Shown here piece after piece: positions 29,181-62,317 of a DNA stretch of 64,000 nucleotides (position 1 is the stretch's first letter; each line of letters begins with the position of its first letter). The notes under the pieces were generated by a model, which made no database searches, was not told the origin of the DNA, and was given only the letters and a program-made list of their open reading frames with translations. A program made the translations under genes and the position numbers. The DNA lies in contig JAQSWD010000037.1 of NCBI GenBank assembly GCA_029266835.1, forward strand, positions 944 to 64,943, written 5' to 3'. Origin of the DNA: Steroidobacteraceae bacterium (lineage in GTDB: Bacteria > Pseudomonadota > Gammaproteobacteria > Steroidobacterales > Steroidobacteraceae).

Positions 29181-29257
29181 GGAAAGGTAGCTCAGCTGGT
29201 TAGAGCACGGCACTCATAATGCCGGGGTCGAGGGTTCGATTCCCTCCCTTTCCACCA
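29181..29257 (+). tRNA. tRNA-Met (anticodon CAU), elongator type; apparent integration target
   Basis: Hand-folded. Acceptor GGAAAGG/CCTTTCC, D-arm GCTCAGCTGGTTAGAGC, anticodon stem CGGCA/TGCCG with loop CTCATAA, T-arm GAGGG-TTCGATT-CCCTC, then ACCA. The D-arm resembles E. coli metT. A lysidine-modified tRNA-Ile2 cannot be fully excluded. Confidence 0.9.
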
Positions 29258-29306
29258 ACTTCTTCAGGTCCGTTCCGGACACATCGGTAACGTTTAATAC
29301 CGATGA

Positions 29307-29549
29307 CATGGCTGATTGGCGATCAATCCAGTGACGCGCCCCAAACAGCCGGTCGCGGATCGCACGATGCGAGGACCGGCGCGACAAGCGAGAACCACGA
29401 CCATTGCAGCAGACGGTCCACGCGCCGTACCCGACCAGCATCAATTCCGGCAGGTCGGACGACAATCCGGCCTTGAACGGTGCGATAAAGTAGATAGGCA
29501 CCTTCGGGTTGAGCGAGTCGCAGAGGAAGCCGCCCGTAATCACTGCAGC
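29307..29549 (-). pseudogene. Possible remnant of a LysE/RhtB-family exporter gene
   Basis: The segment 'LNPKVPIYFIAPF...LMLVGYGAW' of track ORF 29214..29714 looks like the LysE family, but the flanking translation is Arg-rich nonsense and no full-length frame exists. Weak call. Confidence 0.25.
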
Positions 29550-29748
29550 GTGGAGGCGAGTCCGGCGGACGCCAGGCGTTCTTCCGCCAAGGATCGCGCC
29601 GCTCCGCAAGCCCTGCACGCCGCGCCATGGCAGATGCGCCCCCCGAGGGCACCGAGACTCGCGCACAGTTCCGCTCGCCGGCACATGCCAGTGCGCATCG
29701 GACTGGCGGGCCACCCTGAACTTGGCTAGCCTGTTCTAACAAACTCTC

Positions 29749-31551
29749 ATGACGACTCAATCACAAGCGCTCGAAAACCGGATCGGCGCCGAGCAGGTGC
29801 GCTCGGCCTACCGCAATAGTGCTCCCGGCATGGTCGCGACCCTCGCCGGCGCCTGCCTGGTCTCTGCGCTCGTGGCGGGCGCGGGTGCCGTCTCGTGGAC
29901 CGTGGCGATCGTGTTCATGTCGGCGATGATCGTGCAGGTCGTGACGCGGCTCGCGCTGATCTTCACCTACCTGCGGCGCAAACCGCCGGATCTGCAATGG
30001 CGGCGATGGGGCCGGTGGTTCACGGCGGGCGCGCTCGTGGGCGGTCTCACGCTCGGAATCGGCTCCGTGTGGCTCATGCCGCGCGAGCACTTCGAGATGC
30101 AGATGCTCACGCTCCTCTACATCTGCGCGGTCGCGAGCGGCGCCATCACCGCCTTCGGCGTACTGCGCGCCGCGATTTATTCCGTGATCATTCCGCTCGT
30201 CGCGATACCAATCGTGTGGCTCGCACTGCAGGGCGAGCGCACGTCCGTGCTGCTCGCGCTCATCACGCTCGGCTGGTTTCTCGCCGTTTTGGACCAGGCG
30301 CGGCGCTACGGGGCGCAGTTTCGCGAGTCCGTTCGCCTGCGCTTCGAGAATGAGGACCTCATCGCGAACCTCACGCAGGAGAAGATCAAGGCGGAGGAGG
30401 CCAGCGTTGCGAAGTCACGTTTCCTCGCGGCCGCGAGCCACGACCTTCGGCAGCCCGTCCATGCACTGTCGCTGTTCGTCGCCGCGCTGCGGCCGCGCAT
30501 CCCTGAACCTGAAGCCGGCCGCCTGCTCGACCACATCGACAGCTCCGTTCAGGCGATGGGAGGGCTCTTCAACGGCCTGCTCGACATTTCGCGCCTCGAC
30601 GCGGGGGTCGTGGAAGTGAACGCGCGCACATTCGCCCTGCAACCAATGCTCGAACGCATCTGCCGCGACTACGCGTCGACTGCCGAAACCAAGCACATCG
30701 CGTTGCGCTGCCGGCCGACCGCCGCGGCCGTCTTTACCGATCCGCTGCTGCTCGAACGCGTCGTGCGCAACATCGTTGCGAATGCGATCAACTATACCGA
30801 CGGGGGCCGCGTGCTCGTCGGTTGCCGGCGCCGCGGTCGCACGCTGCGCGTCGGCATCTGGGACACGGGTCGCGGCATTCCGGCCGCCGAGCACGAACAG
30901 ATCTTCAAGGAGTTCTACCAGGTCGACAATCCCGAGCGGGATCGCACCAAGGGCGTGGGCCTGGGCCTCGCGATCGTGAAGCGACTGACCGTATTGTTAG
31001 GCCACCCGCTGTCGTTCCGCTCGCAACCCACGCGCGGTTCCGCGTTCTTCGTGGACTTGCCACTGTCGGATGCCGAGATCGTACCGACGGGCGACGCGCT
31101 CGATGCGGCCACGGAGGGCGCGGTTCCGGGATCCGGCCTGGTCCTCGTCGTCGACGACGAAGCGACGATCCAGTCCGCGATGAAGAGCCTGCTCGAAAGC
31201 TGGGGTTACGATGCGATCGTCGCCGGATCCTGCGACGAGATGATCGAGCGTCTCGCGAACTGTCCACACCGCCCGTCTCTCATCGTCTCCGACTATCGAC
31301 TGCGCACCGAAGACGGCATCCGCGTCATCGAACGCCTGCGCTCGGAATACAACGACGACGAAATCCCGGGCATGCTGATCACGGGTGACACTGCGCCTGA
31401 CCGGATCCGCGAAGCGGAGGCGAGCGGGCTACTGCTTTTGCACAAGCCCGTGTCGAATCACCGGTTGCGCGCCGCGATTCTCGAGCTCACGGGCCTTTTC
31501 GCGATGCGATCGGGAAGTCGTGCAGGCACTTTGCCGCCTGGGTGCGGTTGA
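29749..31551 (+). CDS. Hybrid sensor histidine kinase (multi-TM N-terminus-HisKA-HATPase-REC)
   Basis: 600 aa with about 6 N-terminal TM helices. H-box 'ASHDLRQPVHAL', 'GGRVLVG..R......I.DTGRGI', 'GVGLGLAIV', and a C-terminal receiver ('VLVVDDE', 'DYRL', 'LHKP'). Confidence 0.85.
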   Translation: MTTQSQALENRIGAEQVRSAYRNSAPGMVATLAGACLVSALVAGAGAVSWTVAIVFMSAMIVQVVTRLALIFTYLRRKPPDLQWRRWGRWFTAGALVGGLTLGIGSVWLMPREHFEMQMLTLLYICAVASGAITAFGVLRAAIYSVIIPLVAIPIVWLALQGERTSVLLALITLGWFLAVLDQARRYGAQFRESVRLRFENEDLIANLTQEKIKAEEASVAKSRFLAAASHDLRQPVHALSLFVAALRPRIPEPEAGRLLDHIDSSVQAMGGLFNGLLDISRLDAGVVEVNARTFALQPMLERICRDYASTAETKHIALRCRPTAAAVFTDPLLLERVVRNIVANAINYTDGGRVLVGCRRRGRTLRVGIWDTGRGIPAAEHEQIFKEFYQVDNPERDRTKGVGLGLAIVKRLTVLLGHPLSFRSQPTRGSAFFVDLPLSDAEIVPTGDALDAATEGAVPGSGLVLVVDDEATIQSAMKSLLESWGYDAIVAGSCDEMIERLANCPHRPSLIVSDYRLRTEDGIRVIERLRSEYNDDEIPGMLITGDTAPDRIREAEASGLLLLHKPVSNHRLRAAILELTGLFAMRSGSRAGTLPPGCG

Positions 31552-32134
31552 CGACGTTCAGCGTCTTGAAGATCGCAGCGATGTGCACCTTCACCGTTTT
31601 CTCCGCGATGCCGAGGTGCGCGCTGATTTCCTTGTTCGTGAGACCGTCCTTCAGATGGCGCAGCACGTCGATCTGTCGATCCGTGAGCTGGGCGACAGAA
31701 CGGGGACCGTCGGGCGCATGTTGCTCGCTCGCGCGCGCGGCCGCGCCGAGCAGGAGCGGAGGCACATATATGTTCCCGGACAGCACGAGCTTCAACGCGG
31801 ACACGACGGTCTGCGCCGTCGCCGATTTCGGGATGTAACCCGACGCGCCGGCGTTCAATACGCGCCGCACGTCGGAGGCGTTCTCGGAGCTCGACAGCAC
31901 GATGATCGGGAGATCGGGATGGCGACGCGTGAACTCGCGTACCGCCGGCTCGCCACACATTCCCGGCATCATGAGATCCATGAACACCGCGTCGAAGATC
32001 TGCTCGTCGGCGAGATCGAGCGCGTCCTCGATGGAGGTCGCTGGTGTGACGAGGTTGTCAGGCGATGCCTGGCCGAGAAGCGCCGCGAGGCCGTCGCGAA
32101 ACAGCGGATGGTCGTCGATGATGAGGAGCTTCAC
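31487..32134 (-). CDS. NarL/FixJ (LuxR-HTH) family response regulator
   Basis: 215 aa. REC ('KLLIIDDHPLFRDG', 'MDLMMPGM') plus a LuxR HTH ('LTDRQIDVLRHLKDGLTNKEISAHLGIAEKTVKVH'). GTG start. The 3' end overlaps the convergent kinase gene by 65 nt. Confidence 0.9.
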   Translation of the reverse strand: MKLLIIDDHPLFRDGLAALLGQASPDNLVTPATSIEDALDLADEQIFDAVFMDLMMPGMCGEPAVREFTRRHPDLPIIVLSSSENASDVRRVLNAGASGYIPKSATAQTVVSALKLVLSGNIYVPPLLLGAAARASEQHAPDGPRSVAQLTDRQIDVLRHLKDGLTNKEISAHLGIAEKTVKVHIAAIFKTLNVVNRTQAAKCLHDFPIASRKGP

Positions 32135-32188
32135 ACGCTCATCTTAAAGAAACCCTCGCGTTGCAAGCCACAGTTCACATTCCGGTTT

Positions 32189-32210: not shown

Positions 32211-32422
32211 GCCGAAGGACTTAGGCCTTGGGGCTAGGTCCTCTGGTCGATTGCCGGGAACCCCCTACGCCTATGGAATGTGCGCCCTGGGAGGAATCAC
32301 ATGGACCGTTTGCTCACCGGCTGGGCCGCGAAGGGGCTTTGCACCAGCCTGCGCCCGCAATCCGTATCCGCCGTAGAGCGCATCCCCGATGCCCGCGGCT
32401 TTTCGCTATCTGGAGTCCGCCC

Positions 32423-35400
32423 GTGAACAAGCCGTCATCGAAGAAGCTGCCGTCGTCGCAGCCGACCTTCCTCAAGTCCGCCGTCGCGCTCGCAGTCGCG
32501 GCCGGGCTTTACGGCGCACCGGCCCGGGCGCAGATTCCGTCGCCATTTCCATCACCCCCGGCCATCGGCAGCTCGATCCTGAATCCCGTGACTGGCCTGA
32601 TGGAGGTGGTTCGCAGCCATCCCGACCTGCCGTTCGGCACTGTGCGCACCTGGGAAGGGAGCTACATCTGGTACGGCCCGACGACGGAAGACGAAATCTT
32701 CGTCATCCCGGCGCAAGCCGCCATTCCGGCGACGGCTGACTACCCGGGACAGCCCGCGCTGTCGGAGCGGGTCGTACGCATCGATGACGTCACCCGACTC
32801 GACGACAACGACCCCAGTACGCCAGTCGAAGACCATCTAGTCATCGGCATCTCGATCGTGACGTTGAGCGGGGATCCTTCGCCGACTTCTTCGATCGATG
32901 TCGTGAGCCCGATCGTGCAGTCGCCGCCACCGCCTGGACGTGTGCTCGTCCCGACGCCGGGTCCGGGTGAAGGCGGCGCTGGATATACGATTCCCGCGGT
33001 GCCGGCGGACAGTGTGAACGCGATCTACGATCCGCAGCACGGCCGCTATGGCGACAACGGCTCCGATGGCTGGGGCTTCGAGGTCTGCTTCTTCGGATGC
33101 TGGACCGTCGGCGACGATGCGGATCCCGGCGAGGCGGGCAGCGCCCCCTCCGCCTTCACGCAGACTTATGACGCGGATGACCTCGTCGTCGCGAACGGCG
33201 GACAGATTTTCGCCACCGGCTTCGAGCAGGCGGGCATCGCGGTGCTGCGCCGGGGTGGCGACGGCGGCCAGGGCGGCGACGCGTGGGGTGCGCTCAGCGC
33301 CGGAAACGGCGGCGCGGCGGGCCAGGGCGGCCAGATCGACATCACGTCGAACGTCGACATCACTACGACGGGCGAACGTGGCTTCGGCATCTGGGCCCAG
33401 AGCCGCGCGGGCTACGGCGGCGACGGCGGCAGCGGCTACATCTTCAGCGGATCGGGCAGCGGCGGACCTGCGGCGCTCGCGGGCAATGCGAGTGCAACCA
33501 ACAACGGCGACATCATCACCCGCGGTGAAGGCGCCATAGGACTTTACGTCCAGAGCATCGGCGGCGGCGGCGGCAACGGTGGCGATTCCTACGGCATCGT
33601 GGGTGATGGCGGCTGGGCGAGCGAGGGCGGCGACGGACGCACCGCGACGGCGATCAACAACGGCACGATTCAAACCGGCCGCATCGATTTCAACTCGCAG
33701 GGCGTGCTCGACAACATGGGACAGGCAGCGCACGGCGTGTTCGCGCAAAGCGTCGGCGGCAGCGGCGGCAATGCCGGCGACGGCGGCGGCATCACGGGCC
33801 TCGGTGGGACCGGCGCAACCGGTGGCGATGGAGCGCTCGCGCACGCGATCAACGGGGCCAACGCCGGTATCACCACGATCGGTCACGCATCGCATGGCCT
33901 GTACGCGCAGTCGGTCGGAGGGGGCGGCGGCGACGGCGGTTCGGGCGCGGGTATCGTGGGAGTCGGCGGCGGAGGTGCGGGTGGCGGTGATGGTGGTGAA
34001 GCGCGCGCTGAAAATCGGGCGGGCGCGACCATCCTGACGGCTGGCGACGGCGCGTTCGGCATCCTCGCGCAATCGGTCGGCGGTGGCGGCGGCAACGGCG
34101 GCAACTCGGGCGGCATCGTCGGCATCGGCGGCGGCGGCACGAGCGGAGGCCAGGGCGGAGCCGCGAACGTTGACAATAGCGGTTCGGTGACGACGCTCGG
34201 CGACTACTCGCACGGCGTCGTCGCGCAGTCGATCGGCGGTGGAGGCGGCACCGGCGGCAACGGCGACGGCCTCGTGGGGCTCGGCGGCGGCAGCAACTCG
34301 CTCACGCCAAATCACGGCGGCCTGGTGCGCATCGAGAATTTTCTGGGTAGTTCGATCCGTACCGAAGGCCAGAGCTCGTACGGCGTGCTCGCGCAGAGCA
34401 TCGGCGGCGGCGGTGGGTCGGGCGCGGGGTCGGGCGGCTTGGTGACCGTCGGCGGATCCGGCGGCGCAGGCGGCAACGGCAACGACGTGACGGTGGTCAG
34501 TCGCGCGGCGATCGAGACTCTCGGCGCGGACGGCAAGGGCATCGTCGCGCAGTCCATCGGCGGCGGTGGCGGTTCGGCGAGCGCGTCGACGGGCGCGGTC
34601 GAGCTCGGCGGTGAGGGCGCGGGCGGTGGCAATGGCCGGCTCGTCATTGTCGAGAATCACGGTAGCATCTCGACGATCGGCCGCGGTGCGGACGGGATCT
34701 TCGCGCAGAGCATCGGTGGTGGCGGCGGCAACGGCGCGAGCTCGAGCGGCGTGGTCGCGCTCGGTGGCTCGGGCGCGGGCGGCGGTAACGGCGGCGCCGT
34801 GAACGTCTCTAACTACAGCACGATCTACACGCAGGGCGCGCGTGCCCGCGGCATCATGGCCGAGAGCGTCGGCGGTGGCGGCGGCAGCGGGGGCGAGGGC
34901 GACGGGCTCGTCGCGATCGGCGGCTCCGGCGGCGCGGGCGGCGGCGCCGGTGTCGGCACGCCCAACATCGCGGGCGACCTGACGGTCGTCAACGCGGGCG
35001 AGATCCTCACGGCCGGCGCGGTCTCGGCGGCGATCGAAGCGCGCAGCGTCGGCGGCGGCGGTGGCAGCGGCGGCAGCGCCGGTTCCACCGTGCCCGGCGG
35101 CATCGTGATCGGCGGCACCGGCGGCGACGGTGGGCGCGCCGGCTTCGTCGACGTGACCAACAATCGCGACCTCGAAACATTCGGCGATGATTCGCACGGG
35201 ATCTTCGCGCAGGCCGTGGGCGGCGGGGGCGGCAACGGTGGCAACACCACCTCGATTTCCCTGTTCAGCGGCGCGTCGCTCGGTGCGTCCGGCGGTGACG
35301 GCGGCGATGGCAACCGCGTCTGGATTCGAGGCAACTCGCTCGCGGGCGTGACGCCGACGATCGAAACCCACGGCGACCGCGCAAAGGGAATCTTCGCGCA

Positions 35401-38400
35401 GTCGGTCGGTGGCGGCGGCGGCAACGGCGGCTTCGCGATCCAGGGCACGATCGGCCTGGGTCTTGGCGCCAGCGTCTCGACGGCGGTCGGCGGCGCGGGC
35501 GGCGGCGGCGGCGCGGGTGCGCGCGTCGACGTCCTCGCCAGCCAGGCCCTGCGCACGGCGGGTGAGGACGCCGACGGCATCCTCGCACAGTCGATCGGTG
35601 GCGGCGGCGGCAACGGCGGCTTCGCGATGTCGTACTCCGCGGGCTCGGGTCCCGTCGCATCGGGCGCCGTCGCGGCGTCCATCGGCGGGCGCGGCGGCGC
35701 CGGCGGCAACGGCGGCTTCGTCCGCGTCGACGCGGGCGGTTCGATCCTGACGACGGGCGCCCTGTCCGATGGTCTCATCGCGCAATCGATCGGCGGCGGT
35801 GGCGGCTCCGGCGGCTACTCCATCGCGTTCGCGGCGTCGGGCGCGGGCGCCGCCGCGGGCTCGGTGTCGGTGGCGATCGGCGGCACGGGCGGCGACGGCG
35901 GTGCGGCGGGCGAAGTCGACGTCGACTACGCCGGCGACATCACGACCGCCGACAACGATTCCGTCGGCGTGATCGCGCAGGCGGTCGGCGGTGGCGGCGG
36001 TACCGGCGGTTACACCATTTCCGGTTCGCTCGCGGGCGCGGGCGGCGCCGCGGGCGCGGTCGCGGTCGGCGTGGGCGGTGCGGGTGGCGGCGGAGGCGGC
36101 GGCGGAGTCGTGAGCTCCTCGCTCACCGGCAACCTGACTACCCTCGGCGATCGTTCGACCGGAATGATCGTGCAATCCGTGGGTGGGCGCGGCGGCAGCG
36201 GCGGCTTCAACATATCCGGCGCGATCTCGGGCGCGGGTGGCGGGGCGGCGGCGGTCTCCGTCGGCGTCGGCGGTTCGGGCGGCGGTGGCGGCAATGGCAA
36301 CAGCGCGACGGGCACGTTGCTCGGCAACGCGATGACGCTGGGCGCCGATGCGGATGCCGTGCTCGTGCAGAGCGTCGGCGGTGGCGGCGGCAACGGCGGC
36401 TTCAATGTGAGCGGCTCGATCGGTGGCGCGGGCGGTGGCGCCGCGGGCCTGGCGGTCGGCGTGGGTGGCGCGGGTGGCGGCGCTGGCGACGGCCTCGCGG
36501 CGACGGGATCCGTCACCGGCAATCTATCTACCGCGGGCGACGGCTCGAATGCGTTCGTGACGCAGAGCATCGGCGGCGGCGGCGGCAACGGTGGCTTCAA
36601 CGCTGGCGGCGGAATCTCGGGCGGGGGCGGCGGCGCGGGCGCCGTGTCGGTGGGCGTCGGTGGCGCGGGGGGCGGTGGTGGCGCGGGCGGCATCGTATCC
36701 GCGACGCTCGTGGGTTCCGCGCAAACGCGCGGCGACAACGCGACCGCGATCGTCGCGCAGAGCATCGGCGGTGGCGGCGGCAACGGCGGCTTCAACGCGA
36801 CCGGCTCGATTGCCGGCGCGGGTGGCGGCGCGGGCGCCGTGTCGGTCGGCGTCGGCGGATCGGGCGGCGCCGGTGGCGGCGCGCTCCAAACTACTTTGAC
36901 GGTCACCGGCGACGACGGTTCCGGCGGCATTCTCGCGCAAAGCGTCGGCGGCGGTGGCGGCAATGGCGGGTTCAATGCAACCGCAGCGATCTCGGCGGCC
37001 GGCGCGGGCGCGGGCTCCGTCGCGGTCGGTGTCGGCGGCGCGGGCGGCACGGGCGCGCACGTCGGCGGCGTCGTGACGGCAACGGTCACCGGCAATATCG
37101 TCACGCGCGGCGTGAATGCGACGGGCATGACGGCGCAGAGCATCGGCGGCGGTGGCGGCAACGGCGGCTTCAATGCGTCGGCGGCGATCTCGGGCGCGGG
37201 CACCGGCGCCGGTGCCGTTGCGGTCGGCGTCGGCGGTTCCGCCGGCGGCGCCGGCAGCGGCGGCGACGTCGTCGGCACGCTGACCGGCGACCTCGAAACC
37301 ACCGGAGACGGTTCCGACGGCATCGTCGTGCAGAGCATCGGCGGCGGCGGCGGCAATGGCGGCTTCACGGCCGACGGCGCGATTTCCGCGGCTGGCGCCG
37401 GCGCGGGCTCCGTGTCGGTGGGCGTCGGCGGTTCCGGCGCGGGCGCCGGCAACGGCGGCATCGTGACGGCGAACGTGACCGGCAACGTGGTCACCACGGG
37501 CGAGAACGCGAGCAGCATCGTCGCGCAGTCGATCGGCGGCGGCGGCGGCAACGGCGGCTTCGCCGCGGGCGGCGGCATCTCGGGTGCGGGCACCGGCGCG
37601 GGCTCCGTGGCCGTGGGCGTCGGCGGCTCCGGCGGCGCCGGCGGCACGGGCAACGAAGTGCGCGCGGTCGTCAGCGGCAATGCGACCACGCTCGGCGAAA
37701 ACTCGACGGCCGTGGTCGTGCAGAGTCTCGGCGGCGGCGGCGGCACCGGCGGCATGAGCGTCGTCGGCACGCTCTCGGGCGGCGGCACCGGCGCGGGCTC
37801 AGTGTCGGTGGGCCTGGGCGGTGCGGGCGGTGGCGGCGGATTCGCGGGACTAACTACCCTCGATCTCACCGGCGACGTCGGGACGGCGGGCGACGGCGCG
37901 GGCGGCGTGCTCGTGCAGAGCGTCGGCGGCGGTGGCGGCTCGGGCGCGATGAGCGTCGTGGGCGCGCTCGCGGGCGGCGGCCAGGGCGCGGGCGCGGTGG
38001 CCGTGGGCGTTGGCGGTTCGGGCGGGCTCGGCGGCGATGGCGCCGTGGTCGAAGCGGCCGTGACCGGCAACGTGAGCACGCGGGGCGATCGCGCGACCGC
38101 GTTCATCGCGCAGAGTCTGGGCGGCGGCGGTGGCAACGGCGGGATGAACGTGACCGGCGCGATGGCAGCCGCGGGACGCGGCGCGGGCTCGGTGGCGGTT
38201 GGCGTCGGCGGCGTCGGCGGCGGTGGCGGCGACGGATTCGGCGTCACTGCGAGGCACACGGGCATCCTCATCACTCTCGGCGCGGATTCGCATGGCGCGC
38301 TGTTCCAGAGCATCGGCGGCGGCGGCGGCAATGGCGGCATGAACGTCACCGCGGGTCTCACGGCGGCCGGTGACGGCGCGGGCACGCTCGCGGTCGGTGT

Positions 38401-53874: not shown

Positions 53875-55125
53875 ATGCACGAAGTCGTCACCGTCGCTGC
53901 CGCGCCTGCGGGGCGCATTTCCCGTCTGCATGTCATCGCGGGCATCGCCTGTGGGCTGGCGCTCGCCGTCGACATGATCGAGATGGCCCTGGGCGGCGCG
54001 CTGTCGACGGTGTTCCTCGCGCCGCCCTACAACCTCGGTACCACGCAGTTATCGCTGCTGGTGGCGGCGGTGTATCTCGGCGCCGTGCTCGGTGCGCCGA
54101 TGTTTGGCTGGCTCTCGGATCGGCGCGGCGTTCGTCGCTGCCTCGTGATCGCTCTGGGCTGGCTCGCGGTAACGACGATTTTTTGCGCGGCCTCTCCCGA
54201 CATGGTGTGGCTGGGCGCGCTGCGTTTCCTGTGCGGCCTGTCGCTCGGCGCCATTCCGCCGCTGCTCATCGCCTATCTCACGCAGATCGCGCCACCCGAG
54301 CGGCGCGGTCTGCTCATCTTCTGGGTGTGCGGGCTCGCGGCACTCGCGCCGCCCCTCGGAATCATGGCGGTGCGCTGGTTGCTGACGGCGGAGCCGTGGG
54401 GCATCGCGAGCTGGCGGTGGCCGCTCGTCGCGGCGGCGGTGTTGTCCGCCGTCGCCGCGTCGTTGTTCCGCCGGCTCCCGGATGGAAATGCAGCGGAGAG
54501 CTCGCGCGGCGCCGCGGGCATTGCGGAGTCATCGGCATCGGCATCGGCATCCGCATCGGCCTCGCCGCGACGCCTCGTTTACGTCTGCGCCATCTACTTC
54601 CTGTTCCCGTGGGCCGCGGTAGGTTTTCCGTTGTTGACGGGGCCCGTGTTGTTGCTGCGCGGCTTCGACGTGAGCCGCGCGCTGCTGTTCGTCGCATTGA
54701 CCACCGTGGGCCCGACGGTCGCGTCACTCATCACTGGCGCATTCGTCGACAGGCTCGGCCGGCGGACGACGCTGTGCGCGGCGGCGGCGCTGATGCTCGT
54801 CGCGGTGCTGCTGTTCGCATTCTGTCGCGCGCCGTCGTGGGTGGGCGGGGCGCTCGTGCTGTTCGGGCTCGCCGGTGCGATCTACGTCACCGCGCTCACG
54901 CTGTATGCCGCGGAGATCTTTCCACGTGCCGTGCGCACGTTCGCCACATCCACCGCCTGGGCGTGCAACCGCGCGGCCTCGGTCGTCGTGCCGCTCGCGC
55001 TGCTCGCGGTAATCACGCCGCGCGATTCGCTGCTACCCCTGTTGCCCATAGTCATCGCCATGCTCGCATCGATGGTGTTGATAGGCATGGGTCCGCGCGG
55101 CGCGGCCGGTCGCGCGGTCGATTAA
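53875..55125 (+). CDS. MFS transporter
   Basis: 416 aa with about 12 TM helices, the motif A-like 'GWLSDRRGVRR', and a central loop containing an (Ala-Ser)n run. Confidence 0.8.
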   Translation: MHEVVTVAAAPAGRISRLHVIAGIACGLALAVDMIEMALGGALSTVFLAPPYNLGTTQLSLLVAAVYLGAVLGAPMFGWLSDRRGVRRCLVIALGWLAVTTIFCAASPDMVWLGALRFLCGLSLGAIPPLLIAYLTQIAPPERRGLLIFWVCGLAALAPPLGIMAVRWLLTAEPWGIASWRWPLVAAAVLSAVAASLFRRLPDGNAAESSRGAAGIAESSASASASASASPRRLVYVCAIYFLFPWAAVGFPLLTGPVLLLRGFDVSRALLFVALTTVGPTVASLITGAFVDRLGRRTTLCAAAALMLVAVLLFAFCRAPSWVGGALVLFGLAGAIYVTALTLYAAEIFPRAVRTFATSTAWACNRAASVVVPLALLAVITPRDSLLPLLPIVIAMLASMVLIGMGPRGAAGRAVD

Positions 55126-55217
55126 TACCCGCCACAACGTTTAGCAGCTCTTTACTCACGCAGCGTCCGCGCTGCTGAGCAGAATCCTCTCGCGCCATCG
55201 AGGCGCGAGGAGGATCC

Positions 55218-56132
55218 ATGAAGAAGCTGCTGGCAATGTTGCTCACCTGCGTGTGTGTCGGCGCGCACGCGGGACAGTTCGATTTCCCGACCGGGTTCAC
55301 GACGCGATCCGTGCACGCGAAAGACGTGGACATCCACGTGCGCGTCGGCGGAAAGGGGCCCGCCGTGCTGCTGCTGCACGGCTACGGCGAGACTGGCGAC
55401 ATGTGGGCGCCGATGGCGGCGCAGCTCGCGCGCGATCACACCGTCGTGGTTCCCGACTTGCGCGGCATGGGCCTTTCGTCGCGGCCAGCGGGTGGTTACG
55501 ACAAGAAGACGCAGGCCGGCGACGTGGCCGCCGTGCTCGATGCGTTGAAGATCGGGCGCGTCGCGGTCGTGGCGCACGACATCGGCAACATGGTCGCGTT
55601 CGCGTTCGTCGCACAGCATCGTGATCGCGCGACTTCGCTCGTGGTCATCGACGCGCCGTTGCCCGGCATCGGACCGTGGGAGGAAGTCCTCAAGAATCCC
55701 CTGCTGTGGCATTTCCGCTTCGGCGGACCCGACATGGAGCGGCTGGTCGCGGGCCGCGAGCGCATCTATCTCGATCGGTTCTGGAACGAATTCTCCGCGA
55801 CGCCGGCACGCTTCAGCGAGGAGGCGCGGCAACACTACAGTCAGCTGTATGCACAGCCGGGCGCGATGCGCGCCGGGTTCGCGCAGTTCGCTGCGTTCGA
55901 CCAGGACGCCATCGACGATCGTGCGTACATCGCGCAGGCCGGCAAGCTGCAGCTTCCGGTGTATGCGATCGGCGGGGAGAAATCGTTCGGCTCCACGATG
56001 GCGGTGGTGATGCGCGCGGCCGCAAGCAACGTCACCGAGGGCGTCGTCCCGGATTCCGGTCACTGGATCATGGAAGAAAACCCGCGTGAAACAGTGGCCA
56101 TGGTGCGCGCGTTCCTGGAGAAGAACCGATGA
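55218..56132 (+). CDS. Secreted alpha/beta hydrolase (epoxide hydrolase/dehalogenase-like, Asp nucleophile)
   Basis: Signal peptide 'MKKLLAMLLTCVCVGAHA', 'LLLHGYGETGDMW', 'VVAHDIGNMVAF', and C-terminal 'SGHWIMEE'. Confidence 0.8.
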   Translation: MKKLLAMLLTCVCVGAHAGQFDFPTGFTTRSVHAKDVDIHVRVGGKGPAVLLLHGYGETGDMWAPMAAQLARDHTVVVPDLRGMGLSSRPAGGYDKKTQAGDVAAVLDALKIGRVAVVAHDIGNMVAFAFVAQHRDRATSLVVIDAPLPGIGPWEEVLKNPLLWHFRFGGPDMERLVAGRERIYLDRFWNEFSATPARFSEEARQHYSQLYAQPGAMRAGFAQFAAFDQDAIDDRAYIAQAGKLQLPVYAIGGEKSFGSTMAVVMRAAASNVTEGVVPDSGHWIMEENPRETVAMVRAFLEKNR

Positions 56133-56632
56133 ACGGGCTTCGAAAGTCATTGGCGGCAACCGGTATGTGCCTGCTCGCGGTGGTGGTGCTTGCGGCGGCG
56201 GATGCGCGCCTGCTGCGGCTCACGCCGGCCGAGATCGCGGCGCAGGCGAAGGGTGGGGCCGGGCCGGGCACCTCCGGCGTCGCTGGCATCCTAACTACCA
56301 CGCTGTCCGGCGACCCGCGCAAGGCGGGCCCCTACACCATCGAGATCCGCGTGCCGCCGAACACGCGCATCCAGGCGCACACGCATCGCGACGAACGCAC
56401 GGCGGTGGTGGCGTCGGGCCGCTGGTTTTTCGGTTACGGCACGAAAGCCGATGAGGCGCTGGTCAAGGAATTGCCCGCGGGCAGCTTCTACACCGAACCC
56501 GCGCACGTCGCGCATTTCGCGCTGACACGCGACGAGGGCGCCGTGGTCTACATCAGCGGCTTCGGTCCCACGGACACCGTCTACAACGCGGCTGCGAACA
56601 CGCCCGCGGACCAGACCGCTCACAAGGAGTAA
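56129..56632 (+). CDS. Secreted cupin-domain protein
   Basis: 167 aa with a signal peptide. The two His-containing cupin motifs are 'IQAHTHRDER' and 'PAHVAHF'. The start overlaps the preceding stop (ATGA). Confidence 0.6.
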   Translation: MNGLRKSLAATGMCLLAVVVLAAADARLLRLTPAEIAAQAKGGAGPGTSGVAGILTTTLSGDPRKAGPYTIEIRVPPNTRIQAHTHRDERTAVVASGRWFFGYGTKADEALVKELPAGSFYTEPAHVAHFALTRDEGAVVYISGFGPTDTVYNAAANTPADQTAHKE

Positions 56633-56635
56633 GAC

Positions 56636-57400
56636 ATGAACAACAAAATACTGATGATGGCGGCCGGCCTGCTGGCGGGCGGCAGTATCGCTGGCGCCGC
56701 GCCGGCGGCCGCGGCGCCGAAGACCACGGTGGTGCTCGTGCACGGCGCGTTCGCCGATGGCTCGAGCTGGAACCGCGTGATCCCGCTGCTGCAGGCGCGC
56801 GGGCTCGAAGTGGTGGCCGTGCAGAATCCGCTGAGCTCGCTTGCCGACGACGCTTCGGCGGCGCGGCGCGCCATCGAAGCCGCGCCGGGTCCGGTGGTGC
56901 TCGTCGGCCATTCGTGGGGTGGCGCGGTGATCACCGAGGCGGGCGACGACCCGCGGGTCAAGGCCCTGGTCTACGTGGCGGCGTTCGCGCTCGAAAAAGG
57001 CGAATCGGTCAACGATCTGCTGAAGGCGGGGCCGCCGCCCGCGTGGGCGGCGCAACTCCGGCGCGACTCGGCCGGATTCCTCACGCTGCCGCCCGACGTG
57101 GTCGCGAAAGATTTCGCGCAGGACCTGCCTGAGGCGGAAACGAAGCTCATGGCCGCGACGCAGGGCCCTTGGTCCGAGCGCTGCACCGCCGACGTGCTGA
57201 GCGCGGCGGCGTGGCACGGGCGTTCGTCGTGGTACCTGGTGGCGGAAAACGATCACATGATCGATCCGAACGCGCAGGCCGCCATGGCCGCGCGCATCGG
57301 CGCGAACGTCACCCGCGTGGCCGCGAGCCACGTCCCCATGCTCTCGCAGCCGCAACAGGTCGCCTCGGTCATCGCCGCGGCCGCGGCCTACATCCACTGA
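56636..57400 (+). CDS. Secreted alpha/beta hydrolase (Ser nucleophile)
   Basis: Signal peptide, 'VVLVHGAFADGSSW', the nucleophile elbow 'GHSWGG', and an AAGGAG ribosome-binding site upstream. Confidence 0.8.
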   Translation: MNNKILMMAAGLLAGGSIAGAAPAAAAPKTTVVLVHGAFADGSSWNRVIPLLQARGLEVVAVQNPLSSLADDASAARRAIEAAPGPVVLVGHSWGGAVITEAGDDPRVKALVYVAAFALEKGESVNDLLKAGPPPAWAAQLRRDSAGFLTLPPDVVAKDFAQDLPEAETKLMAATQGPWSERCTADVLSAAAWHGRSSWYLVAENDHMIDPNAQAAMAARIGANVTRVAASHVPMLSQPQQVASVIAAAAAYIH

Positions 57401-57417
57401 ACCAACAGGAAAACACC

Positions 57418-58107
57418 ATGTCCCCGAAGAAACTCGCACAACGCAGCGAGAAGGGCCTCCTCACGCCCGACAACTGCGTGCTCGCCTTCATCGACCTGCA
57501 GCCGCAGATGCTGTTCGGTGTCGCCAACTTCGATCGCCAGACCGTCATCAACAACAACCTGTTGCTCGCGAAAGCGGCGCGGGTGTTTGGTGTGCCGGTG
57601 ATTCTCACCACGGTCGAAACCCGCGCGTTCAGCGGAAACCTTTGGCCGCAGGTGCAAGCCGTATTCCCGGAGCAGCAGCCGATCGAGCGTTCGACTATGA
57701 ACTCTTGGGACGACGCGAAGTTCGTCGCCGCCGTGCAAGACACGGGTCGCCGCAAGCTCATCATCAGCGGCTTGTGGACGGAGACCTGCGTAGCCCTGCC
57801 CACGGTCCAGGCGCTCGATGACGGCTACGAAGTGTTCGTCGCGGAGGATTGCTGCGGCGACGTCAGCGCGCTCGCACACGACAACGCGATGCGACGCATG
57901 GAGCAGGCGGGCGCGAAGCCGGTCACGGCGCTCTCCGTGTTGCTCGAGTGGCAGCGCGACTGGGCGCTGAAGGAGACCTACGACGCCGTCATGGACATCG
58001 TGAAGACGCACTGCGGCGCCTATGGCGTCGGCGTGGAGTACGCGTACACGATGGTCCACGGCGCGCCGGCGTCGCAGCTTCCCGCGTACGTGCCGGCCGG
58101 ATCATGA
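57418..58107 (+). CDS. Isochorismatase-family hydrolase (YcaC-like)
   Basis: Start is at 'MSPKKLAQ' (57418) within track ORF 57169..58107. It aligns by eye with E. coli YcaC ('ILTT.ET', 'LIISGLWTETCVA.P', 'RM.QAGA'). Confidence 0.8.
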   Translation: MSPKKLAQRSEKGLLTPDNCVLAFIDLQPQMLFGVANFDRQTVINNNLLLAKAARVFGVPVILTTVETRAFSGNLWPQVQAVFPEQQPIERSTMNSWDDAKFVAAVQDTGRRKLIISGLWTETCVALPTVQALDDGYEVFVAEDCCGDVSALAHDNAMRRMEQAGAKPVTALSVLLEWQRDWALKETYDAVMDIVKTHCGAYGVGVEYAYTMVHGAPASQLPAYVPAGS

Positions 58108-58196
58108 AGGGCAGCCTGGTGACGACGGCGGCGCGCGTGCCTGCGCATCTCCCCGGCGAAGCCGCGCGCGCCGTCGTTACCGGGAGGAGGTGACAC

Positions 58197-60038
58197 ATGG
58201 ACGCGATTGCCAGTCTCGCGATCACGAATGCCCGCGTGACGACGCTGGATCCGGCCCGGCCGCAGGCGGAGGCGGTCGCCGTGCACGGCAACCGCATCCT
58301 CGCGGTCGGTAGTGAGGCGGAGGTGCGGCGACACATCCGCGCCGCGACGCAGGTGGTGGACGGGCGCGGTCGGCGCCTGATCCCCGGGCTCATCGATTCC
58401 CACATCCATGTGATCCGCGGCGGCCTCAATTTCACACTTGAGCTGCGCTGGGACGGCATCTCCTCACTCGCCGATGCGATGCGGCTGCTGCGCGAACAGG
58501 TGGCGCGCACGCCGACGCCGCAATGGGTGCGCGTGGTGGGCGGCTTCACCGTTCACCAGTTCGCCGAACGGCGACTGCCTACGCTCGACGAGCTCAATGC
58601 GGTGGCGCCGGATACGCCGGTATTCATCCTGCACCTGTACGACCGCGCGTTGCTGAATCGTGCCGCGCTCGCCGCGGCAGGATATACGCGCGAGACGCCG
58701 AACCCGCCGGGCGGCGAGATCGTGCGCGATGCCCGGGGCGAACCCACCGGGCTGCTGCTGGCGCGCCCGAATGCATTGCTGCTGTATTCGGCGTTGGCGC
58801 GCGGTCCCAAACTTTCGCCGGAGTACCAGCTCAATTCCACGCGCCATTTCATGCGCGAGCTCAATCGCCTCGGCGTCACCTCCGTCGTCGATGCCGGCGG
58901 CGGCTTCCAGAATTATCCCGATGACTACCAGGTCATCGATGAGTTGCACCGGAACGGCCAGCTCACGCTGCGCATCGCCTACAACCTGTTCACGCAGAAG
59001 CCGAAGGAAGAGGTGGCGGACTTCCTGCGCTGGACTTCCGCGAGCCGTTACCAGCAGGGCGATGACTTTTACAAGCTCAATGGCGCGGGCGAGATGCTCG
59101 TGTTCTCGGCTGCCGACTTCGAGGACTTCCGCGAACCGCGCCCCGAATTGCCGGCAGCGATGGAAGGCGAGCTCGAAGCCGTGATCCGGGTGCTCGCGGC
59201 CAGGCGGTGGCCCTGGCGCATGCATGCCACTTACGACGAAACCATCGGCCGCGCGCTGGACGTGTTCGAGCGCGTGGATCGGGACATCCCGTTGTCGGGC
59301 ATCCACTGGTTCTTCGACCATGCCGAGACGGTGACCGATCGGAATCTCGAGCGCATCGCGCGTCTCGGTGGCGGCGTCGCCATCCAGCATCGCATGGCCT
59401 TCCAGGGAGAGGACTTCATCGCGCGCTACGGCACGCAGGCCGCGGGTCGGACTCCGCCCTTCCGCCGCATGCTCGAAATGGGGATCCAGGTGGGTGCGGG
59501 CACGGATGCCACGCGCGTCGCGAGCTATGACCCGTGGACGCTGATGCACTGGCTGACCACCGGCCACACGGTGGGCGGCACCGCGTTGTACGGCCGCGAA
59601 CAGTGCCTGTCGCGCGTCGCGGCGCTCGATCTGTGCACGCGCGCCAATACCTGGTTTTCGAATGAGCGGGGGCTCAAGGGCCAGGTGGTCGCGGGGCAAT
59701 TGGCGGACCTCGCGCTGCTGTCACGCGACTTCCTGGAAGTCGACGAGGACGACATTCGCGGCATCCGGTCGTTGCTCACCGTCTGCGACGGCAAGGTGGT
59801 CTTCGCTGCGGGCGAGTACGCGTCGTTTGATCCGCCCTTGCCGCCGGTGCTGCCGGACTGGTCGCCGGTGAAACACGCCGCCCGCATCGACCCGGTCGCC
59901 CCGCCCGCAGCGGCAAACGGCCTCACGTGTGCGCCGCATTCCTGTCAAGTGCACGGCACGAAGCCCCGGCCGAGCGCGACCTGGAATGACAGCGCAGGGT
60001 TCTGGGGTCCGCTGGGCTGCTCGTGCTGGGTGTTCTGA
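58197..60038 (+). CDS. Metal-dependent amidohydrolase (amidohydrolase-3/YtcJ-like)
   Basis: 613 aa with a strong ribosome-binding site (GGGAGGAGG). 'GLIDSHIHV', 'W.FDHAE' and the C-terminal 'V..T.CDGKVVF' are typical of this family. Confidence 0.85.
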   Translation: MDAIASLAITNARVTTLDPARPQAEAVAVHGNRILAVGSEAEVRRHIRAATQVVDGRGRRLIPGLIDSHIHVIRGGLNFTLELRWDGISSLADAMRLLREQVARTPTPQWVRVVGGFTVHQFAERRLPTLDELNAVAPDTPVFILHLYDRALLNRAALAAAGYTRETPNPPGGEIVRDARGEPTGLLLARPNALLLYSALARGPKLSPEYQLNSTRHFMRELNRLGVTSVVDAGGGFQNYPDDYQVIDELHRNGQLTLRIAYNLFTQKPKEEVADFLRWTSASRYQQGDDFYKLNGAGEMLVFSAADFEDFREPRPELPAAMEGELEAVIRVLAARRWPWRMHATYDETIGRALDVFERVDRDIPLSGIHWFFDHAETVTDRNLERIARLGGGVAIQHRMAFQGEDFIARYGTQAAGRTPPFRRMLEMGIQVGAGTDATRVASYDPWTLMHWLTTGHTVGGTALYGREQCLSRVAALDLCTRANTWFSNERGLKGQVVAGQLADLALLSRDFLEVDEDDIRGIRSLLTVCDGKVVFAAGEYASFDPPLPPVLPDWSPVKHAARIDPVAPPAAANGLTCAPHSCQVHGTKPRPSATWNDSAGFWGPLGCSCWVF

Positions 60039-60052
60039 TCATGGAGGTCACG

Positions 60053-60622
60053 ATGGACAGATCCGCAACTCTCTTCATTCAGCATCGGGTGCGAGCGAGC
60101 GAGTTGACGCGCTACGAGACGTGGCTGCGCATCATCATGGCGAAGGCCGCCGAGTATCCCGGCCATCAGGGCGTGCACGTAATCCGACCCGCACTCGGCG
60201 ACAACGAATATTCCATCGTCCTCCGTTTTGCGACGGGCGAGGATGCAGGTCGATGGGCTGCTTCGCGCGACCGTCAGCAGTTGCTGGACCAGATTGCCGA
60301 CGCCATCGAAACCGGCGATCGCGTCGAGATCCGATCGGGGATCGACTTCTGGTTCACGCCCGCCGGAACCGTCGATCGCCGCGCCCCGGCGTGGAAGCAA
60401 TGGCTGGTCACTACCGGTGTCATCTGGGTCCTCACGATGCTCGTCCCGCCGCTTCTCGATCCGCTGTTTGCCGAGTTTCCGTTGCTCGGTGCATGGGGCG
60501 TCCGGCACGGCATCCTCGCCGCGGTCATCGTTGCGCTGGTGGTGTTCCTGGTCATGCCCCGGGTGACGCACCTACTCGAGCGCTGGCTGTTCGCCGGAGG
60601 GCAATCGGAACCCACCCAATGA
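60053..60622 (+). CDS. ABM-like (antibiotic biosynthesis monooxygenase fold) domain protein with C-terminal TM helices
   Basis: Start is chosen at the ATG at 60053 because GGAGG lies 5 nt upstream. The N-terminal roughly 95 aa resemble the ABM/ferredoxin-like fold, and two hydrophobic helices follow. Family call is tentative. Confidence 0.5.
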   Translation: MDRSATLFIQHRVRASELTRYETWLRIIMAKAAEYPGHQGVHVIRPALGDNEYSIVLRFATGEDAGRWAASRDRQQLLDQIADAIETGDRVEIRSGIDFWFTPAGTVDRRAPAWKQWLVTTGVIWVLTMLVPPLLDPLFAEFPLLGAWGVRHGILAAVIVALVVFLVMPRVTHLLERWLFAGGQSEPTQ

Positions 60623-62079
60623 GAGAAGCCAGGGGCAAGCCGAGGCAAATATCCTCGGCGCCGAACCGAGAGGGCGCTGGTCGGCGCTACCCGTGCCTCG
60701 GCGTTTGGTTCGCATCCATTTGTATTGGCGCGCTGGGTAGCGTGGCCACCGCGCAGACGGGACCAGCATTCAAATCACTGCGACATGACGAGAACTATGA
60801 CTACCTGCGTGATCCAGAGCTCAGGACATCGGTCCTCGATTCGTTGAAGTTCATCCCTTTGCGAGCCGACGCATCGTCGTACTTTTCCCTGGGAGGAGAC
60901 ATTCGTGAGCGATTCGAACGGGTCGATCACCCGGGTTGGGGCCGTAGTCCGCGAGACGACGATGGCTACCTGTTGCAACGATTCATGCTCCACGCAGATT
61001 TGCATGTTGGCGAGACCATGAGGTTCTTCACGCAGGTGAAGAGCGGCCTGGAGGACGGGCGTGAAGGAGGTCCCAGACCCATGGACCGCGATGGCGCCGA
61101 CCTGCACCAGGCATTCATGGACTGGAACGCGCTGCGCTCCGGCAGATCACAGATGACCTTGCGCGTGGGCCGGCAGGAACTGGTCTATGGCTCTGCGCGA
61201 CTGATCTCGAACCGAGATGGACCGAACGTCCGGCTCTCATTCGACGGTGTGAAGTTGATGTTCGGATCGCGAGCTTGGCAAACCGATGCCTTCGTGGCTC
61301 GGCCGGTCAGCACCCGTCCAGGTGCCTGGGACGATGGGCGTGATCGGAACACGTTGCTTTGGGGTCTATACGCCAGCGCGCCATTCCATCGGCTTCAGGC
61401 GGCCAGCATCGAGCTCTACTACCTCGGCTTGCACAAGGATGAGGCGCAATTCGATCAGGGGATCGGAGAAGAACATCGCCACTCGCTGGGCGCCCGCTTT
61501 TCTGGTCGCGCTTCAGGCTGGGACTACAACATGGAGGCTATCTACCAATTCGGGACGTTCGGATCCGGGAGGATCCATGCATGGACGCTGGCGTCAGATT
61601 GGGGATTCCAGTTTCGAGGCCGCAAGTTCGAGCCGCGCCTCGGGTTGAAAGCCAATGTGACGAGCGGCGACCGGGACCCGACGTCACGCGATCTGCAGAC
61701 CTTCAACCCGTTGTTCCCGCGCGGTGGCTACTTCGGAGAGCCGGCGCTGATCGGGCCGGCCAATCACATCGACCTGCACCCGTCGTTGAGCCTGGACCTC
61801 GGTGCTGGCGTCAAGCTGGATCTGAGTTGGGACTACTTCTGGCGCGAAAGTGTGCGCGACGGAATCTACGGGCCGGCCGTGAACTTGCTCCAACCTGGCG
61901 CCGCGGGTTCCTCACGGAACGTCGGTGATCAGGTCGAAGTCAAACTTGACTGGGCAGTCAACCGCAACCTGGCCATCAGCGCTGACTATGCTCATTTCTT
62001 CACTGGAAAATTTCTGAAGCTGTCCGGGCATGACAGGGACATCGACTATCTATCTGTGTACGGAACGTTGCGATTCTAG
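60619..62079 (+). CDS. Alginate-export-family (AlgE-like) outer-membrane beta-barrel porin
   Basis: Start is at 'MREARGK' (60619), overlapping the previous stop (ATGA); the rest of track ORF 59929..62079 upstream is a shadow. 'LRHDENYDYL', 'LSLGGDIRERFE', an alternating beta-strand pattern and the terminal 'YGTLRF'. G+C is visibly lower than in the surrounding DNA. Confidence 0.7.
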   Translation: MREARGKPRQISSAPNREGAGRRYPCLGVWFASICIGALGSVATAQTGPAFKSLRHDENYDYLRDPELRTSVLDSLKFIPLRADASSYFSLGGDIRERFERVDHPGWGRSPRDDDGYLLQRFMLHADLHVGETMRFFTQVKSGLEDGREGGPRPMDRDGADLHQAFMDWNALRSGRSQMTLRVGRQELVYGSARLISNRDGPNVRLSFDGVKLMFGSRAWQTDAFVARPVSTRPGAWDDGRDRNTLLWGLYASAPFHRLQAASIELYYLGLHKDEAQFDQGIGEEHRHSLGARFSGRASGWDYNMEAIYQFGTFGSGRIHAWTLASDWGFQFRGRKFEPRLGLKANVTSGDRDPTSRDLQTFNPLFPRGGYFGEPALIGPANHIDLHPSLSLDLGAGVKLDLSWDYFWRESVRDGIYGPAVNLLQPGAAGSSRNVGDQVEVKLDWAVNRNLAISADYAHFFTGKFLKLSGHDRDIDYLSVYGTLRF

Positions 62080-62266
62080 GGATCGGCTGCTCGAAGGGCC
62101 TTTCCATGGCGACCGCATCTCCTGTTGACCAGTGAGTCTTGTCTTGGACGATCGAAGGGTGCGGGACTCTTGCGTGACCAGCTCTGCTCAGTTGTGCTCA
62201 GTGCGGATGTTCAGCAACGGACGCCCGCGGCAAGTGGTTGATTTCTAAAGTTCGATAGTCCGATCG

Positions 62267-62317
62267 ACGGCACTCATAATGCCGGGCTCGAGGGTTCGAT
62301 TCCCTCCCTTTCCACCA
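62267..62317 (+). repeat. Third copy of the 3' 51 nt of tRNA-Met (distal att-like repeat)
   Basis: ACGGCACTCATAATGCCGGGCTCGAGGGTTCGATTCCCTCCCTTTCCACCA has 1 mismatch to 29207-29257. The downstream flank is unrelated to the flanks after the other two copies. Confidence 0.85.

Follow-up and report, generated by a model that had tools for sequence, protein, structure and literature searches.

The tRNA-Met locus and its repeated 3' half

The stretch of DNA examined here (hereafter the window) comprises 64,000 nt of contig JAQSWD010000037.1, which belongs to the metagenome-assembled genome (MAG) GCA_029266835.1 of a Steroidobacteraceae bacterium, and harbours an intact tRNA-Met(CAT) gene followed by two gene blocks of about 16 kb each. 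These blocks, designated block 1 and block 2, contain no recognisable integrase gene and are probably best understood as a tandem array of decayed islands. The tRNA gene (29181-29257, plus strand) was identified by ARAGORN and scored 73.5 bits against the Rfam model RF00005. A first-pass annotation, made by a model from the letters of the sequence, had claimed that the 51-nt 3' part of this gene recurs twice with three and one mismatches, and the claim was confirmed by a 51-mer search: in addition to the last 51 nt of the tRNA gene itself (copy 1, 29207-29257), tRNA-Met 3' fragments were found at 45532-45582 (copy 2, three mismatches) and at 62267-62317 (copy 3, one mismatch), all three on the plus strand. 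Since none of 100 dinucleotide-preserving shuffles yielded a single match to the 51-mer, no extra copies are predicted by chance. The three repeats are thus tRNA-derived att cores.

The cores are flanked by further conserved sequence, referred to as the L arm to the left of copies 2 and 3 and as the R arm to the right of copies 1 and 2. Read from left to right, the locus consists of tRNA-core-R and block 1, L-core-R and block 2, and L-core followed by unique flanking DNA; upstream of copy 1 there is just the 5' part of the tRNA. The junctions at copies 2 and 3 are the same in three independent Joint Genome Institute (JGI) assemblies from the population of the window (sister contigs L001-L003), which indicates that the array is not an assembly artefact. 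The first-pass annotation had also allowed for a dispersed repeat family, an alternative that is contradicted by the confinement of the core to three positions of the window and, among 17 related loci, solely to tRNA-Met or to the end of an island.

Occupancy of the site in relatives

The left flank of the array is made up of housekeeping DNA (prfA, lolB-ispE, tRNA-Gln, prs, rplY, pth, ychF and a ZIP transporter gene) and ends with genes assigned by Pfam to a GGDEF/EAL response regulator and a hybrid histidine kinase (23886-29005, minus strand), the latter having a true length of 939 aa and abutting the tRNA. The prs-rplY-pth-ychF synteny is conserved among relatives, and the kinase, for which more than 100 orthologue clusters (83-99% identity) are present in soil metagenomes, served as an anchor for sampling the DNA behind tRNA-Met in related organisms. 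In a scan of genome contigs anchored on the same kinase, just two hits were true orthologues, and both of these stood on short contigs; the remaining 78 loci were paralogues from other phyla.

The DNA behind tRNA-Met proved to be hypervariable: at least four integrase-bearing elements, of which one includes genes for type IV secretion, were found there besides several blocks that have no integrase. Entirely different DNA follows the tRNA in relatives with 86-92% identical kinases. Differing occupancy of this tRNA-Met, for which the first-pass annotation had proposed a comparison of related genomes, was therefore seen, and integrase-bearing elements are among the occupants. In the case of one and the same kinase sequence (P0138), three states were encountered: an element with a capsid gene, SieB and a distal 399-aa integrase (L090/L092), a 442-aa integrase located directly at the tRNA (L094), and an integrase-less cargo coding for an FAD/BBE oxidase, PNP_UDP, an S8 peptidase and GH43 (L091/L093). 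Another kinase (P0159) is followed either by a 400-aa integrase with cargo (L096) or by integrase-less cargo (L097-L099). Locus L095 harbours a 400-aa integrase of the family here called type A and, within the next 6 kb, a FlhD-like gene, TrbC, VirB3 and VirB4/TrbE (217-7495); judged by this gene content, it is a probable integrative and conjugative element (ICE) cut off by the end of the contig. Its integrase-proximal genes are shared by L096, in which transporters come next. An integrase of the 400-aa type-A family lies at the tRNA in L008 as well, the 442-aa type is found in L009 and L100, and L101 displays yet another type of arm, while a 4.65-Mb MAG (L102) has a transglycosylase gene and no integrase at the site.

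Locus L104 belongs to the same species as the window (96.1% nucleotide identity over 13,279 nt of the left flank) and contains a diverged R followed by unrelated DNA, with no block 1. Beyond this diverged R, positions 1-576 include a run of N that marks a scaffold gap, as well as a GGTAACACCTTAG... segment that is nearly repeated. As regards the element of L090/L092 (1-9640, at least 10 kb), it encodes SieB, DUF2971, an HTH_8 protein, a lone Phage_capsid protein, HTH_17 and a distal P4-type integrase (Arm-DNA-bind_3 + Phage_integrase), a gene set that resembles a phage satellite more than a prophage.

Arms of the att cores

The L arm before copy 2 (45464-45531, plus strand) is truncated in the window contig, and the one before copy 3 (62150-62266, plus strand) is of full length. 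The homology of the two arms noted in the first-pass annotation was retained, the alignment being gapless, yet it extends over ~68 nt at ~74% identity rather than over 57 nt. In the sister contigs the copy-2 L arm is 65 nt longer, and its homology to the copy-3 arm then reaches ~135 nt. This 65-nt indel, located between 45463 and 45464 (positions 170-234 of L001-L003), is the sole difference between the window and its sisters across the copy-2 junction; the extra nucleotides comprise a motif pair, described below, together with a TGCTCAG segment that has its homologue in the copy-3 arm. Each block hence appears to have first ended in a P arm of ~135 nt, and the loss of 65 nt in the window contig could be either a deletion, that is, real microheterogeneity, or an assembly variant.

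The affiliation of the L arms is suggested by comparison with the integrase-bearing relatives. The type-A integrases are 400-aa tyrosine recombinases with an identity of 92-98% among themselves and of ~32% to the 442-aa type. Their P' arm, which extends from the end of the tRNA to the stop codon of the integrase gene, carries the tandem pair TTGCGGGAC-TTT-TGCGGGAC. In the window, the pattern GCGGGAC-N3-TGCGKGAC has one exact match, GCGGGACTCTTGCGTGAC at 62161-62178 in the copy-3 L arm, against 0.10 expected by chance. Among the fetched loci, the other exact sites lie in the type-A P' arms of L008, L095 and L096 and in the L arm of L103, an island described in the next section, whereas the sites on the sister contigs are in the copy-3 arm and in the copy-2 arm of L001-L003; the copy-2 L arm of the window itself is devoid of the motif pair. 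When the first ~70 nt after the tRNA were compared in L008/L095/L096, L009/L094/L100, L090/L092 and L101, the arm beside each integrase type was found to have its own tandem direct-repeat motif (TTGCGGGAC, GGTAAGCGCA, GTAAGTGCA and GATAAGTGC, each present twice), and these repeats are likely the arm-type binding sites of four different integrases that use one tRNA core. On the basis of the shared motif and of L103, which combines a type-A-like P' arm with an L arm, the L arms are assigned as P arms of the attP family presumably served by the 400-aa type-A tyrosine integrase. A weak gapped match of the L arm upstream of the L008 integrase (E = 0.16) was set aside in favour of the exact motif-pair test.

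A conserved block of the L arm, GCAACGG(A/G)CG (45479-45498 and 62214-62233 of the window; 10019-10028 of L103), resembles the tRNA anticodon-stem segment GCACGGCA. In L103 this block stands directly against CTCATAATG, without the 49 nt present in the window. Taken together, the likeness and the abutment may be an indication that the L arm holds an older, degenerate remnant of a core.

The R arm is represented by 55 nt with two predicted hairpins behind copy 1 (29258-29312, plus strand) and by 35 nt behind copy 2 (45583-45617, plus strand), and no R-like sequence follows copy 3. Their first ~35 nt are common to both copies and identical at 32 of 33 positions, with one 1-nt indel, in accordance with the near-identical right arms that the first-pass annotation had reported after these copies. 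All 55 nt of the first copy are shared with L091/L093 and L103. In L091/L093, R stands directly behind the tRNA, and past these 55 nt the cargos diverge from that of the window. No GCGGGAC-type arm motif was detected in R, and no known RNA was found by Rfam in R or L; the two hairpins of R fold with a predicted energy of -17 kcal/mol. Scans of 2.9 million viral contigs with an R 19-mer and an L 20-mer returned 0 matches, and the R motif matched a single metagenome contig, namely L103.

The first ~9 nt past CCA are alike in nearly all states yet polymorphic, being ATTTCTTCA, ACTTCTTCA or TTCTCTTCA. The L095 junction consists of ATTTCTTCA followed by the type-A P' arm, and the distal junction of L103 of TTCTCTTCA followed by R; to judge from the four sequences compared, these look like reciprocal products of recombination between an L091-type attB and an L008-type attP, which would place the crossover near +9/+10 after CCA. 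Thus R is probably a target-side flank carried along by elements of the type-A family rather than an element-encoded P' arm, as suggested by its lack of arm motifs, its location behind the tRNA in the integrase-free L091/L093 and, in diverged form, in L104, and its position on the target side of the L103 insertion. The view of the first-pass annotation that the two blocks had related attP sites therefore holds for the left, P arms, with their type-A motif pair, and probably does not extend to the right, P' arms.

An integrase-less Wadjet island at the same site

The 10,131-nt contig L103 (JACZCZ010130499.1) starts inside the tRNA-Met core (positions 1-53) and continues with a left arm, JetD, JetC, JetB, JetA, a MarR-like gene, a restriction-type gene, an L arm, a core fragment and R. 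Its defence cargo between the two tRNA-Met cores hence consists of the anti-plasmid system Wadjet (JetABCD) and the restriction-type gene (131-6747). The left arm, 78% identical to that of L095 over 128 nt, represents a type-A P' arm that has diverged and whose motif pair is degenerate; the L arm is 77% identical to the copy-3 arm of the window over 77 nt. The type-A P'-like left arm had led to the assumption that L103 is an integrase carrier; this was rejected when the adjacent gene proved to be JetD by Pfam, and no integrase gene was found by Pfam in the contig. When L103 is set against L091/L093, the island is seen to be cleanly inserted, with the tRNA core on one side and R on the other. 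It is a complete integrase-less Wadjet island of ~10 kb with arms of the type-A family.

Gene content of the two blocks

A gene map was built with a third-codon-position GC filter and Pfam. Neither this map nor further searches disclosed any mobility gene. Pfam detected no recombinase, transposase or conjugation/transfer domain in any large open reading frame (ORF) between the repeats (29258-62317), nor any relaxase, coupling protein or type IV secretion system (T4SS) domain in the ORFs of this interval. Six-frame translations of the gaps at the copy-2 and copy-3 junctions contained no recombinase and gave nothing at E <= 0.1 in Pfam, and no recombinase was found among the ORFs of the copy-1 gap, which corresponds to a LysE pseudogene. 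When the type-A and type-B integrases of the relatives were compared with the whole window by tblastn, only the tRNA-overlapping tail of those ORFs was matched. The statement of the first-pass annotation that no integrase, excisionase, transposase or conjugation gene is recognisable in the blocks is thereby upheld, as is its remark that the two cargos are unrelated, which agrees with the gene content according to Pfam.

Block 1 begins with the decayed LysE pseudogene (29319-29682, minus strand; blastn, tblastn, Pfam), which is frameshifted and lacks its 3' end. It is followed by a 600-aa hybrid histidine kinase (29749-31551, plus strand; HisKA, HATPase_c and Response_reg), a 215-aa LuxR/GerE-type response regulator (31487-32134, minus strand; GC3 coding signature, Response_reg and GerE) and a 4369-aa glycine-rich repeat autotransporter (32228-45337, plus strand; repeat families D1-D17, Pfam Autotransporter beta-domain). 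The history of the left edge is illuminated by two relatives, L105 and L106, in which the kinase, the regulator and the giant gene are present at 96% nucleotide identity and an intact LysE gene and a GH9 glycosidase gene are located upstream of the kinase. Their homology to the window spans its 490-nt spacer as far as 29319, inside LysE, the identity from 29319 on being 86% (blastn). With the intact L105 LysE as a query, tblastn matched residues 81-190 across two frames of the window, in which the C-terminal 18 codons are missing; likewise, Pfam found a LysE domain in L105 and no intact one in the window ORFs. Because the homology ends inside LysE, and R (29258-29312) is fused directly to the truncated pseudogene, the left edge of block 1, on present comparisons, represents a deletion scar and not the terminus of an element, and the block must once have been larger. 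In the window contig both edges of block 1 are thus eroded, the left one by the LysE scar and the right one by the absence of 65 nt from the P arm. The possibility that block 1 and the L091/L093 cargo formed one ancestral block was considered and rejected, as the terminal 473-aa gene product of L093 has no similarity to the GH9 protein of L105.

The giant autotransporter gene is 13.1 kb long and contains dozens of ~195-nt (65-aa) glycine-rich repeats with a GC content of up to 0.78. The whole protein has no match in Pfam, and its C-terminal 500 aa match the Autotransporter beta-domain. The sister assemblies break within this gene.

Block 2, which was encountered solely in the population of the window, starts with two paralogous regulators composed of a winged helix and a STAND/AAA ATPase (45707-48703 and 48707-51523, plus strand; Trans_reg_C, AAA_22, nSTAND). 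Both are ~950 aa long, with an OmpR-type winged helix, and their genes share 74-79% DNA identity in parts (repeat families D18/D20); the pair is a recent tandem gene duplication. The remainder of the block (51528-62079; Pfam and JGI gene calls on L001) codes for a TonB-dependent receptor on the minus strand and, on the plus strand, for an MFS transporter, an alpha/beta hydrolase, a cupin, a second alpha/beta hydrolase, an isochorismatase, an amidohydrolase, Y2318_C and an Alginate_exp porin.

Origin of the array

We consider it probable (roughly 0.6) that two non-autonomous islands stand here in tandem behind the 3' end of tRNA-Met, in an array that was built by site-specific recombination at a strain-variable hotspot and later eroded. 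The blocks would have been installed by recombination of the type-A family, whether they arrived as elements or were DNA that had come to lie between cores, so that each of them may be a remnant of a type-A-family element or may have been captured by one; the integrase module would then have been lost from the blocks or would never have been present in them. Any DNA enclosed by two cores would move and be retained as one piece, which would explain the persistence of the R-cargo-L-core unit. The blocks are presumably unable to excise on their own, and since the attL sides (tRNA-core-R and L-core-R) are without P'-type sites, independent excision in trans is unlikely. On the other hand, core and P arm have been kept at the right ends (of block 2 in the window and of block 1 in the sister contigs), so that, if a type-A ICE were to integrate into the tRNA, its excision could take one block or both along with it. 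By this route, cis-mobilisation of the blocks by an incoming type-A ICE, as described for CIMEs (cis-mobilizable elements), could take place. In the sampled population, we infer that the array is fixed chromosomal DNA.

Several observations weigh against this interpretation. Neither block contains a residual gene of an ICE or of an integrative and mobilizable element (IME), such as a relaxase, T4SS or excisionase gene. The GC content is 0.62-0.70 in blocks and flanks alike and higher only in the glycine-rich repeat gene, and is therefore not atypical. The motif pair is linked to the type-A integrase by association only. As none of the 10-kb flanks sampled from the integrase-bearing relatives contained another copy of the core, the distal ends of the type-A elements lie further out, and their own P arms are unseen. 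No empty site, excision product or circle junction was found for these blocks, all three sister assemblies having the same array. Furthermore, R is found on two or three unrelated cargos and has the same end point in two of them, which fits a functional arm no less than a flank carried passively.

This last point leads to an alternative in which the blocks are active, satellite-type islands that regularly excise and integrate independently of each other, their L-core-R serving as an attP recognised in trans by an integrase located elsewhere or brought in by a visiting element. The presence of the same R on at least two, possibly three, unrelated cargos, with the same end nucleotide in copies 1 and 2, would be expected of such islands, and so would the look of a complete attP that L-core-R of copy 2 has, the occurrence of a fourth integrase-less island (the Wadjet island of L103) in tandem with an R-type block, and the variable occupancy among strains of the same species. 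However, R is free of arm-type motifs, block 1 begins with a deletion scar in a pseudogene and not with a conserved terminus, the motif pair is gone from the copy-2 P arm of the window, and the array is identical in the three sister assemblies, with no empty or single-occupancy variant. A driving integrase elsewhere in the genome, as suggested in the first-pass annotation, did not emerge either: the clusters of 74-98% identity contained no MDF30... accession, so that no type-A integrase was traced to the source MAG, a weak negative, as the MAG is fragmentary and accessions accompany only some cluster members. All in all, active satellites seem quite unlikely, and of the two readings that the first-pass annotation had left side by side, that of decayed integrase-less islands in tandem was retained, while that of satellites mobilised from elsewhere gained no positive support. 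A different objection would be that the att repeats are passive relics and that the order of the blocks results from RecA-dependent homologous recombination or gene conversion between the cores (51-86 nt) and the flanking genes after DNA uptake. Core and R together amount to 86 nt of near identity, enough for homologous exchange, the highly conserved left flank could be the second homology arm, and the R copies (32/33) are far closer to each other than the L arms (~74%), as homogenisation by conversion would have it. Nevertheless, the boundaries at both block ends match the att architecture exactly (a P arm with the motif pair, then the core), the clean insertion of the Wadjet island between core and R relative to L091/L093 is what site-specific integration predicts, and +1 to +9 after CCA in L095 and in the distal junction of L103 resemble reciprocal attB x attP products in the four sequences available, all of which makes exchange by homology alone a rather doubtful account. 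As to the suspicion that there is no real feature at all, i.e. that a dispersed repeat family or a chimera joined at tRNA-like repeats has been mistaken for an array, MAG contigs can indeed be chimeric at repeats, and several contigs of the relatives end at this very tRNA; given the agreement of three independent assemblies on the copy-2 and copy-3 junctions, the restriction of the core to its three places in 64 kb and to tRNA-Met or island ends in the 17 loci, and the rarity of the R and L motifs outside the locus, an artefact is hardly credible.

It may also be speculated that R-cargo-L-core units form a family of integrase-less mega-cassettes, lined up in integron-like arrays at one tRNA-Met across soil Steroidobacteraceae and served by one ICE-borne 400-aa integrase. 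R would then be a dedicated integrase-free left arm, perhaps acting as a terminator or processing signal of the tRNA as well, and defence (Wadjet), giant adhesins and catabolic modules would all be among the cargo. Such a generalisation appears rather unlikely at present.

Relation to known mobile elements

Islands inserted at tRNA genes in arrays are a classical theme, exemplified by the leuX, pheV and asnT islands of Escherichia coli and the tRNA-Gly ICE arrays of Bordetella petrii, and the integrase is often lost in old tRNA-associated islands. The array described here agrees with this picture in that the blocks lie at the 3' end of a tRNA gene, are bounded by direct repeats derived from it, are present in some and absent from other close relatives, and carry accessory cargo, i.e. 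an adhesin-like autotransporter and genes for uptake and catabolism. In contrast to the classical islands, the base composition of the blocks is not atypical, no integrase remnant is left in either of them, and their arms still correspond to an integrase family that is alive in sister strains.

A closer parallel is offered by cis-mobilizable elements (CIMEs), which have no integration or transfer genes, have kept their att sites and are involved in accretion with ICEs (PMC5704250, PMC6323972). According to the literature cited in PMC5704250 (Pavlovic et al. 2004; Bellanger et al. 2011), CIMEs and tandem accretion were first described for ICESt1/ICESt3-related elements of Streptococcus thermophilus. 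Like CIMEs, the two blocks are free of integrase, excisionase and conjugation/transfer genes, are bounded by att-type direct repeats with cores at both ends of both blocks, and follow one another at the 3' end of a single target gene with a chimeric internal att site between them; moreover, related integrase-bearing elements, including a probable ICE, occupy the same site in sister strains. The attR sides have the motif-bearing P arm (in the case of block 1 in the sister contigs only), whereas the attL sides, unlike those of CIMEs, consist of R with no recognisable P' arm. Descent from an ICE or IME by loss of its modules may be indicated by the match of the P arms to the Wadjet island with its diverged type-A P' arm, by the position of a type-A integrase beside T4SS genes in L095 and by the deletion scar at the left edge of block 1. 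No vestige of the ICE backbone is left in the blocks, so that descent from an ICE is deduced from the arms alone; this lack and the scar distinguish the array from CIMEs. Further differences from the streptococcal CIMEs are that the latter use fda or tRNA-Lys as a target, whereas here tRNA-Met of an uncultured Gram-negative soil gammaproteobacterium is used, and that no mobilisation of the present array was observed. The array is accordingly classified as decayed, CIME-like tandem islands at a tRNA hotspot and is a new example of a known structure.

Other classes fit less well. With IMEs and phage satellites the blocks share the kind of integration site, and in L090/L092 this very tRNA is occupied by the capsid-gene element, which measures at least 10 kb and encodes an integrase itself. 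However, ICEs possess an integrase together with a T4SS, and IMEs and satellites have an integrase and usually a relaxase and origin of transfer (oriT) or replication and packaging functions, none of which is present in either block; in particular, no integrase, replication/primase, capsid-redirecting or packaging domain of satellites of the phage-inducible chromosomal island (PICI) or P4-like kind was found in the blocks. An integron, in which an IntI-type integrase with attI adjoins short cassettes that each have a terminal attC hairpin, is not indicated either, as no integrase lies beside the array and its units are multi-gene blocks of ~16 kb bounded by tRNA fragments.

The findings imply that many elements have made use of one tRNA gene in an abundant uncultured soil lineage as their point of entry, given that at least four integrase families and several integrase-less blocks occur there among strains with an identical gene next door, and that cargo such as the 4369-aa autotransporter, the uptake/catabolism module and Wadjet can outlast the mobility genes at the site. 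The correspondence of the P arm to the type-A integrase offers a concrete, testable candidate for the mover of the islands. In this way the picture of CIMEs and accretion, derived mostly from streptococci, is extended to environmental Gammaproteobacteria, and current models are left unchallenged.

Right flank of the array

To the right of the array (62318-64000, plus strand), 222 nt of unique sequence are followed by the gene of a PAS/HWE histidine kinase, which starts near 62540 and runs off the window. An orthologue of this kinase with 74% identity was found in L089, a locus considered as an empty-site reference and discarded, for its kinase pair adjoins miaB-phoH-corC-lnt with no tRNA-Met and is not syntenic. 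Upstream of the kinase gene of the window, just past copy 3, a perfect tandem duplication of ~36 nt (GCGCCAAGAGGGCGGCGGACGTCTGTCGGTGCAGG) is present at 62340-62412.

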